Of a DNA stretch of 64,000 nt, positions 61,003 through 63,468 are shown in pieces. This DNA is from Escherichia coli (GTDB lineage: Bacteria; Pseudomonadota; Gammaproteobacteria; Enterobacterales; Enterobacteriaceae), in NCBI RefSeq assembly GCF_003790525.1, contig NZ_CP033635.1. One strand, 5' to 3'. Position 1 is the first letter of the stretch, and each line of letters starts with the position of its first letter. Below the pieces are notes generated by a model, which worked only from the letters and a program-made list of their open reading frames with translations, searched no databases and had not been told where the DNA came from. The position numbers and the translations under genes are program-made.

Positions 61003-61812
61003 ATGTTCTTAATTAACGGTCATAAGCAGGAATCGCTGGCAGTAAGCGATCGGGCAACGCAGTTTGGTGATGGTTGTTTTACCACCGCCAGAGTTATCGA
61101 CGGTAAAGTCAGTTTGTTATCGGCGCATATCCAGCGACTACAGGATGCTTGTCAGCGGTTGATGATTTCCTGTGACTTCTGGCCTCAGCTTGAACTAGAG
61201 ATGAAAACGCTGGCAGCAGAACAGCAAAATGGTGTGCTGAAAGTGGTGATCAGTCGCGGTAGTGGCGGGCGAGGATACAGCACATTGAACAGCGGACCGG
61301 CAACGCGGATTCTCTCCGTTACGGTTTATCCCGCACATTACGACCGTTTGCGTAACGAGGGGATGACGTTGGCGCTAAGCCCGGTGCGGCTGGGGCGCAA
61401 TCCTCATCTGGCAGGTATTAAACATCTTAATCGGCTTGAGCAAGTATTGATCCGCTCTCATCTTGAGCAGACAAACGCTGATGAGGCGCTGGTCCTTGAC
61501 AGCGAAGGGTGGGTTACGGAATGCTGTGCGGCTAATTTGTTCTGGCGGAAGGGCAACGTAGTTTATACGCCGCGACTGGATCAGGCAGGTGTTAACGGCA
61601 TTATGCGACAATTCTGTATCCGTTTACTGGCACAATCCTCTTATCAGCTTGTCGAAGTGCAAGCCTCGCTGGAGGAGGCGTTGCAGGCAGATGAGATGGT
61701 TATTTGTAATGCGTTAATGCCAGTGATGCCCGTACGTGCCTGTGGCGATGTCTCCTTTTCGTCAGCAACGTTATATGAATATTTAGCCCCACTTTGTGAG
61801 CGCCCGAATTAG
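61003..61812 (+). CDS. pabC: aminodeoxychorismate lyase PabC
   Basis: 269-aa class IV aminotransferase-like ORF. Confidence 0.92.
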
Positions 61813-61814
61813 TC

Positions 61815-62837
61815 ATGAAAAAAGTGTTATTGATTATCTTGTTATTGCTGGTGGTACTGGGTATCGCCGCTGGTGTGGGCGTCTGGAAGGTTCGCCATCT
61901 TGCCGACAGCAAATTGCTTATCAAAGAAGAGACGATATTTACCCTGAAGGCTGGGACCGGACGTCTGGCGCTCGGTGAACAGCTTTATGCCGATAAGATC
62001 ATCAATCGCCCACGGGTTTTCCAATGGCTGCTGCGTATCGAACCGGATCTTTCTCACTTTAAAGCCGGGACTTACCGCTTTACACCGCAGATGACCGTGC
62101 GCGAGATGCTGAAATTGCTGGAAAGCGGTAAAGAAGCACAGTTCCCTCTGCGACTGGTAGAAGGGATGCGTCTGAGCGATTACCTCAAGCAATTGCGTGA
62201 GGCCCCGTATATCAAGCATACGCTGAGCGACGATAAGTACGCCACCGTAGCGCAGGCACTTGAACTGGAAAACCCAGAGTGGATTGAAGGTTGGTTCTGG
62301 CCAGACACCTGGATGTATACCGCCAATACCACCGATGTCGCGTTACTCAAGCGAGCGCACAAGAAAATGGTGAAAGCGGTCGATAGCGCCTGGGAAGGGC
62401 GTGCGGACGGTCTGCCCTATAAAGATAAAAACCAGCTGGTGACGATGGCATCAATTATCGAAAAAGAAACCGCCGTTGCCAGTGAACGCGATCAGGTTGC
62501 CTCGGTATTTATCAACCGGTTACGCATTGGTATGCGCCTGCAGACCGACCCGACCGTGATTTACGGGATGGGAGAGCGTTATAATGGCAAACTTTCTCGT
62601 GCAGACCTGGAAACGCCGACAGCGTATAACACCTATACCATTACCGGTTTGCCGCCAGGTGCAATAGCTACGCCGGGGGCGGATTCGCTGAAGGCTGCTG
62701 CGCATCCGGCAAAAACGCCGTATCTCTATTTTGTGGCCGATGGTAAAGGTGGTCACACGTTTAATACCAATCTTGCCAGTCATAACAAGTCTGTGCAGGA
62801 TTATCTGAAAGTGCTTAAGGAAAAAAATGCGCAGTAA
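61815..62837 (+). CDS. mltG: endolytic murein transglycosylase MltG (YceG)
   Basis: 340-aa ORF with N-terminal TM anchor. Confidence 0.92.
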
Positions 62838-63468
62838 GTATATCGTCATTGAGGGGCTGGAAGGCGCAGGCAAAACTACCGCGCGTAACGTGGTGGTTGA
62901 GACGCTCGAGCAACTGGGTATCCGCGACATGGTTTTCACTCGGGAACCTGGCGGTACGCAACTTGCCGAAAAGTTAAGAAGCCTGGTGCTGGATATCAAA
63001 TCGGTAGGCGATGAAGTCATTACCGATAAAGCCGAAGTTCTGATGTTTTATGCCGCGCGCGTTCAACTGGTAGAAACGGTCATCAAACCAGCGCTGGCTA
63101 ACGGCACTTGGGTGATTGGCGATCGCCACGATCTCTCCACTCAGGCGTATCAGGGCGGCGGACGTGGTATTGACCAACATATGCTGGCAACATTGCGTGA
63201 TGCTGTTCTCGGGGATTTTCGCCCCGACTTAACGCTCTATCTCGATGTTACCCCGGAAGTTGGCTTAAAACGTGCGCGTGCTCGCGGCGAGCTGGATCGT
63301 ATTGAGCAAGAGTCTTTCGATTTCTTTAATCGCACCCGCGCCCGCTATCTGGAACTGGCAGCACAAGATAAAAGCATTCATACCATTGATGCCACCCAGC
63401 CGCTGGAGTCCGTGATGGATGCAATCCGCACTACCGTGACCAATTGGGTGAAGGAGTTGGACGCATGA
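62827..63468 (+). CDS. tmk: thymidylate kinase
   Basis: 213-aa ORF with P-loop [10 protein letters not shown]; overlaps mltG 3' end. Confidence 0.95.

Follow-up and report, generated by a model that had tools for sequence, protein, structure and literature searches.

The compact gene junctions of the pabC-mltG-tmk-holB cluster in Escherichia coli

The window analyzed here, by which we mean the whole 64,000-nt stretch of Escherichia coli DNA, ends in four closely packed genes on the + strand. The first is pabC, encoding aminodeoxychorismate lyase (61003–61812; 269 aa; stop TAG at 61810–61812), which is preceded by the Shine–Dalgarno (SD) sequence UAAGGAG at 60991–60997, placed 5 nt before the ATG, with an SD duplex of -8.5 kcal/mol and kept in 76 species. 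It is followed by mltG, also known as yceG, for the endolytic murein transglycosylase (61815–62837; 340 aa with an N-terminal transmembrane helix; stop TAA at 62835–62837), by tmk for dTMP kinase (62827–63468; 213 aa with the P-loop GLEGAGKT at residues 10–17; stop TGA at 63466–63468), and by holB for DNA polymerase III δ′, of which the window contains the first 178 codons (63465–64000). Beyond the window holB continues to a full length of 334 aa, and ycfH then starts after a 10-nt gap. The protein identities are supported by matches to known structures: PabC aligns over residues 1–269 with 1–269 of PDB 1et0_A (E=5e-178), MltG over residues 72–340 with 2r1f_A (E=6e-182), Tmk over 1–213 with 1–213 of 4tmk_A (E=1e-135), and δ′ over 1–334 with 1–334 of 1a5t_A (E=2e-226).

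The segment from 60900 to 64000 is 100% identical to E. coli SMS-3-5, and the first 49.9 kb of the window differ from that genome by 3 mismatches and 1 gap. The same segment finds a match of at least 95% identity in 5,424 of 5,426 complete E. coli genomes, and in 5,423 such a match spans at least 80% of its length. The gene limits agree between this sequence, the RefSeq/PGAP annotation of SMS-3-5 and the curated K-12 MG1655 record. The K-12 cluster pabC-mltG(yceG)-tmk-holB-ycfH (b1096–b1100) has identical genes, order and spacings (+2/-11/-4/+10), with no substantive difference; the window carries another strain's copy of that locus. An Rfam scan of 60700–64000 returned no RNA family matches. 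It is nearly certain that the locus is a fully annotated, ordinary and compact E. coli housekeeping cluster that was already known.

The three junctions are exactly as tight as the initial annotation described them, in the sequence as well as in both annotations. At pabC/mltG (61810–61817, + strand) the DNA reads TAG-tc-ATG, so that the pabC stop is separated from the mltG ATG at 61815 by the two nucleotides 61813–61814 (a spacing of +2). The mltG and tmk genes overlap by 11 nt (ATGCGCAGTAA, 62827–62837, + strand; -11), which places the mltG TAA inside tmk codons 3–4, in the form AGT AAN. The overlap of tmk and holB is the 4-nt ATGA at 63465–63468 on the same strand (-4), with the holB ATG at 63465. 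Three further overlaps in the window had been offered as similar cases. Two are real: opgG and opgH share 8 nt (ATGAATAA, 17797–17804), and flgI and flgJ share 1 nt (TGATG). The overlap of ymdB with clsC is found in PGAP (-59 nt) but is a 1-nt gap (+1) in the curated K-12 record, because the two differ in their choice of clsC start.

Tight junctions of this kind are common. Among the 57 same-strand adjacent pairs annotated in the window and directly beyond it, 13 (23%) are spaced by +6 nt or less and six overlap. In E. coli, 707 of 2,987 unidirectional pairs (24%) lie at -8 to +6 nt, and -4 is the commonest spacing, followed by -1 and -8 (PMC10666635). When the 57 distances were permuted inside their own strand blocks, 27% of the shuffles contained one or more runs of three tight junctions, and the true expectation is above this value because tight junctions cluster in real operons. 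Three tight junctions in a row are no more than chance for this genome. Nor is it exceptional for neighbors at such distances to have products that form no complex: in E. coli, 69.6% of the pairs so closely spaced do not code for subunits of a common complex, though the complex-subunit class is enriched among closely spaced pairs (30.4% vs 6.8%; PMC10666635). The genes here had been called functionally unrelated, which is right in the sense that their products form no complex, but tmk and holB both serve DNA synthesis, and their adjacency is typical of γ-proteobacteria (PMC10653934).

Upstream of the cluster, an intrinsic terminator follows fabF (60905–60931, + strand). It consists of a 10-bp hairpin at 60905–60928 and a U-run, has a folding energy of -13.3 kcal/mol with z = -2.67 against shuffles, and delimits the pabC transcription unit on its upstream side. 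The terminator was confirmed by folding, having been missed by the promoter/terminator scan. On the + strand of 60700–64000 that scan found no σ70 consensus promoter and only one terminator-like site, at 63869–63885 inside holB, with site counts no greater than in shuffles. In K-12, mRNA levels are 120 for tmk and 103 for ycfH, compared with 2337 for fabF, and ribosome densities are 110 for tmk and 134 for ycfH, these being the two genes of the operon for which values are given (Burkhardt 2017). The similar mRNA and ribosome densities of tmk and ycfH, together with an mRNA level approximately 20-fold below that of fabF, fit a single low-level transcript that starts after the fabF terminator. 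We infer that pabC-mltG-tmk-holB-ycfH are co-transcribed, probably as one low-level mRNA beginning at that point. Excerpts from published proteome tables put MltG at a mass fraction of approximately 2–5e-5 and HolB at approximately 2e-5, the latter often going undetected (Mori 2021).

To see which features of the junctions are kept, we compared 80 loci found in a genome scan with Tmk, each from a different Enterobacteriaceae species and with Tmk 84–99% identical. Orthologues were placed by tblastn and extended to their stops, and whichever codon aligned with the start of the E. coli gene was taken as the start. The mltG/tmk spacing is -11 in 76 of 79 species, tmk/holB is -4 in 77 of 79, and holB/ycfH is +10 in 67 of 78. 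Two of the three exceptions at mltG/tmk are loci with frameshifted reading frames. One of them, L045, is a draft with a frameshift at the mltG/tmk junction itself, and the other, L065 (Kluyvera genomosp. 3), is a poor assembly in which no gene is free of frameshifts, its real spacings being -11/-4. The Atlantibacter locus is a genuine variant, with mltG/tmk at -23 and tmk/holB at -1. The pabC/mltG distance takes several values: +2 in 42 species, -4 in 25, +1 in 7, and +4, +5 and +8 once each, one further value of 119 being an artefact of locus L065. Because this distance changes freely among close relatives, strong selection does not act on its exact value.

The two overlaps are preserved to the nucleotide. 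Codon 3 of tmk is AGT in 78 of 78 species and codon 4 is AAN in 78 of 78, encoding either Lys or Asn, so it is the nucleotides T-AA, i.e., the embedded mltG stop, that are conserved rather than the amino acid. Adjoining synonymous sites vary freely (TAC/TAT 47:31, ATC/ATT 59:19). Likewise, the first base of holB codon 2 is A in all 78 species (AAA in 71, AGA in 6, AAG in 1), because the tmk TGA stop requires that base; where this codon encodes Arg it is always the rare AGA, in contrast to the Arg at codon 8, which is CGN in 75 of 78. This pattern of substitutions shows that purifying selection acts on where the embedded stops lie, though the selected trait need not be coupling, and it could instead reflect selection on the protein C-termini.

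A word-indexed homologue search with Tmk returned nothing beyond relatives at the level of Enterobacteriaceae. More distant relatives were obtained from an exhaustive search of 50%-identity representatives and eight contig look-ups, with Tmk 45–58% identical and starts as given by the gene callers. The order fab-(pabC)-(mltG)-tmk-holB-tatD recurs there, with mltG or pabC missing in some genomes. In all seven cases with a same-strand gene downstream of tmk the two genes overlap (-10, -4, -1, -31, -4, -4 and -23), and five of these seven downstream genes carry δ′-type Pfam domains, the products at loci L083 and L084, cut by the contig end, being unassigned. The mltG/tmk spacings are -4, +8, -17 and -4, and pabC/mltG is -1 in the sole case that has both genes. 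The tight spacing is therefore old, and its particular values are lineage-specific. Pseudomonas putida shares the synteny mltG-tmk-holB, and the 3′ end of its tmk overlaps holB in what has been termed a predicted translational coupling architecture; when that locus was engineered, the overlap was kept as TGATG (PMC10653934). It differs from the E. coli locus in the sequence and spacing of the junction, and the tmk of KT2440 is interrupted by a genomic island.

Two of the three downstream genes carry a ribosome-binding signal inside the preceding gene. The tmk SD, AAGGA at 62817–62821 (+ strand), lies within mltG Lys-Glu codons 5 nt before the ATG, with a duplex of -6.1 kcal/mol, and the surrounding AAGGA(A/T)AAAA is conserved across species. 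For holB it is AAGGAG at 63451–63456 (+ strand), within tmk Lys-Glu codons and 8 nt before the ATG (-8.3 kcal/mol), and its (A/G)GGAG core recurs among the species sequences listed. The mltG start has no SD motif in any of 77 species; its duplex ranges from -1.9 kcal/mol here to -4.4 kcal/mol, and the value of -1.9 puts mltG in the weakest five of the 69 local genes (median -6.0). Folding of 100-nt windows centered on the three starts gave no stable RNA structure at the junctions relative to shuffles (z = +0.25, -0.66 and -0.79). Coupling by RNA unfolding, in which the SD or start is hidden until upstream ribosomes melt the structure, has no support at any of the junctions.

The spacing of the junctions bears on coupling by termination-reinitiation. 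The initial annotation had taken the junctions to indicate translational coupling; the geometry does permit it, but spacing alone indicates no more than that. Coupling is most efficient at -4 to +3 nt (PMC12548453), and in E. coli spacings of -8 to +10 nt are treated as predictive of termination-reinitiation (PMC10666635). Both pabC/mltG at +2 and tmk/holB at -4 fall inside these ranges, and mltG/tmk at -11 falls outside both. A gap of 2 nt lowers coupling by 5–70% depending on the pair (PMC10666635, PMC12548453), and a growing overlap cuts it more steeply than a growing gap, with none left at -25 (PMC12548453). From these relations, coupling at mltG/tmk is expected to be weaker than at the optimal spacing. 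Our literature searches found no coupling measurements for pabC/mltG, mltG/tmk or tmk/holB. Compared with the pairs for which termination-reinitiation has been described (PMC6728339, PMC10666635, PMC12548453), the present genes are likewise co-directional and have an embedded SD at two of the three junctions, those of tmk and holB and not that of mltG. They differ in that coupling is here predicted from spacing and sequence, that the products do not form one complex, and that -11 is longer than the enriched overlaps of -1, -4 and -8.

On balance we favor a mixed and partial coupling within an ordinary operon. Because the end of each gene adjoins or contains the start of the next, a terminating ribosome would be released a few nucleotides from the next AUG and could reinitiate there. 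The embedded SDs, AAGGA for tmk and AAGGAG for holB, would admit fresh ribosomes as well. The contribution of coupling should differ between junctions. It would matter most for mltG, which lacks an SD and starts 2 nt after the pabC stop; it would probably be efficient at tmk/holB, where ATGA is combined with a strong SD; and it would be weakest at mltG/tmk, where an 11-nt overlap is combined with a start that has its own SD. Some dependence of downstream on upstream translation at these junctions is thus plausible.

A possible but less probable account is that the co-transcribed genes are all initiated independently, with de novo ribosomes loading at each gene's own site and the overlaps playing no role in coupling. 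The conserved and well-spaced SDs of tmk and holB would suffice for this, and the junctions, which fold no better than shuffled sequences, would not stand in the way of new ribosomes. There is also precedent in the overlapping E. coli pair bioB/bioF, which is initiated de novo and uncoupled, though in the same study four of five native overlapping pairs were coupled by termination-reinitiation, for which an SD was usually needed, and the SD served reinitiation as well (PMC6728339). A further precedent is the dcw (mra) operon, which resembles the present cluster in being an extended series of essential housekeeping genes joined at -13 to +3 nt, but comprises many more genes. Ribosome densities in that operon nevertheless range from 27 to 158, approximately 6-fold, a spread also covered by genes spaced at -3 to -13 nt (Burkhardt 2017), and tight junctions therefore do not imply equal output. 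A difficulty for independent initiation is mltG, which has no SD in 77 of 77 species and yet has a start that never lies outside the range of -4 to +8 nt from the pabC stop.

At the other extreme, one can imagine a strict "ribosome relay", in which mltG is read essentially only by ribosomes leaving pabC, and in which the invariant AGT-AAN and ATGA are kept specifically so that a fixed share of those ribosomes moves on to tmk and holB. We regard this stronger version as doubtful.

It is also conceivable, though we think it improbable, that the overlaps are by-products of the turnover of stops and starts in a gene-dense genome and have no selected function at all. An ATGA arises easily, since the ATG supplies three of its four bases, and the abundance of -4 spacings has been ascribed to this ease of evolution (PMC12548453). 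The switching of the pabC/mltG spacing among close relatives and the many different junction values in the distant ones are what such neutral compaction would produce, and tight junctions are as frequent in the window as in the genome on average, with runs of three turning up in the shuffles at the rate given above. What speaks against it is the invariance, in 78 species, of the synonymous site of tmk codon 3 and of the first base of holB codon 2, next to synonymous sites that vary.

Finally, the overlaps might vanish if the true starts were elsewhere, as the initial annotation had allowed, but no alternative start codon removes them. The annotated ATGs of pabC, mltG and tmk are each the first in-frame start past an in-frame stop, and longer versions are therefore impossible. 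For holB there is a single upstream in-frame TTG, at 63444 and 21 nt before the ATG, and downstream no in-frame start before codon 35. The next in-frame start of tmk is codon 22, beyond the P-loop, which would be deleted by starting there. In mltG there are in-frame GTG/TTG codons at positions 4 and 6. The GTG at codon 4, which is start-capable in 68 of 77 species, would move the pabC/mltG spacing to approximately +11 nt. However, the mltG ATG is present in 77 of 77 species, and codons 2–3 (Lys-Lys) change only synonymously between AAG and AAA, as coding sequence does. All four annotated ATGs are kept in 76–78 Enterobacteriaceae species, those of pabC, mltG and tmk in 77–78, and the PDB chains of δ′, Tmk and PabC align with the predicted proteins residue 1 against residue 1 and along the entire chain. 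N-terminal sequencing of native δ′ was reportedly published in 1993. Thus, even though the choice of the clsC start in the same window does move a spacing from -59 to +1, we reject mis-annotated starts as a highly improbable explanation, given the first-possible ATGs, their conservation, the P-loop and the residue-1 alignments.

The junction types found here, -4, +2 and -11, are a standard layout of compact operons, shared by approximately a quarter of E. coli same-strand pairs. A coupling experiment would be informative only at the junction of pabC with the SD-less mltG. If the strict relay were true, translation of a folate-pathway gene would set the level of a peptidoglycan strand terminase, and the ratios of four unrelated low-abundance proteins would be fixed. 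For practical purposes, the embedded SD, start and stop signals have to be kept intact in any deletion or replacement of mltG, tmk or holB, since papers cited by the P. putida study describe both tmk and holB as essential (PMC10653934). The invariant AGT at tmk codon 3 and the rare AGA or AAA at holB codon 2 also provide a small and clean example of dual-coding selection.

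The overlaps of tmk with its neighbors impose codon choice at two places, tmk codons 3-4 (window 62833-62838), in which the mltG stop is embedded, and holB codon 2 (63468-63470), whose first base lies in the 4-nt overlap with tmk. In all of the 78 Enterobacteriaceae species compared, tmk codon 3 is AGT and is followed by an AAN codon for Lys or Asn. The Arg at holB codon 2 is encoded by the rare AGA in Escherichia-like species. Together these choices keep the embedded stop codons.

In some genomes the stretch from the fab genes to tmk lacks mltG and/or pabC, as at three contig loci carrying distant Tmk relatives (L084, L086 and L090). 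At L084 tmk follows fabF after 1 nt, and at L086 and L090, whose source records span only 599 kb and 529 kb, it lies directly after pabC. An overlap of tmk with its downstream gene is nevertheless present at all three loci, and at L086 and L090 that gene carries delta'-type domains.

The window is close to, but not exactly, strain SMS-3-5: positions 1-49930 match NC_010498.1 with 99.992% identity over 49.9 kb, with 3 mismatches and one 1-nt gap, and because of this gap the coordinate mapping shifts by 1 nt between the window's two ends. At the ymdB/clsC junction (13229-13289) the annotated start of clsC differs between two records, so that the ymdB/clsC overlap claimed in the initial annotation holds with the PGAP start of SMS-3-5 (ATG at 13229, 59-nt overlap) but not with the curated K-12 start (TTG at 13289, +1 gap). 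A third possible start, an in-frame ATG at 13280 with AAGGAG upstream, would place clsC at -8.

On the minus strand between flgL and rne (~47980-48765), a gene pair coding for DUF1778 and GNAT-acetyltransferase proteins, also annotated in SMS-3-5, overlaps by ATGA and resembles a toxin-antitoxin module. An Rfam scan of the window gave matches above the gathering score, each outside the pabC-holB junction region: SraB sRNA (54292-54460, plus strand) and, on the minus strand, the rne 5' UTR element (52096-52432), PyrC leader (29545-29594), a tRNA (4503-4587), ES056 (10187-10278), ES036 (20372-20414) and Ysr251 (2961-3154).

Shine-Dalgarno duplex energies, computed for the 69 annotated starts of the whole window, have a median of -6.0 kcal/mol, and weak or missing motifs are frequent in the downstream genes of tight junctions: mltG and mdoH (both -1.9 kcal/mol), flgN (-2.4), csgE (-2.9), flgJ (-3.3) and flgC (-3.5). 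In this small sample, such weak motifs would fit a dependence of the downstream genes on reinitiation.
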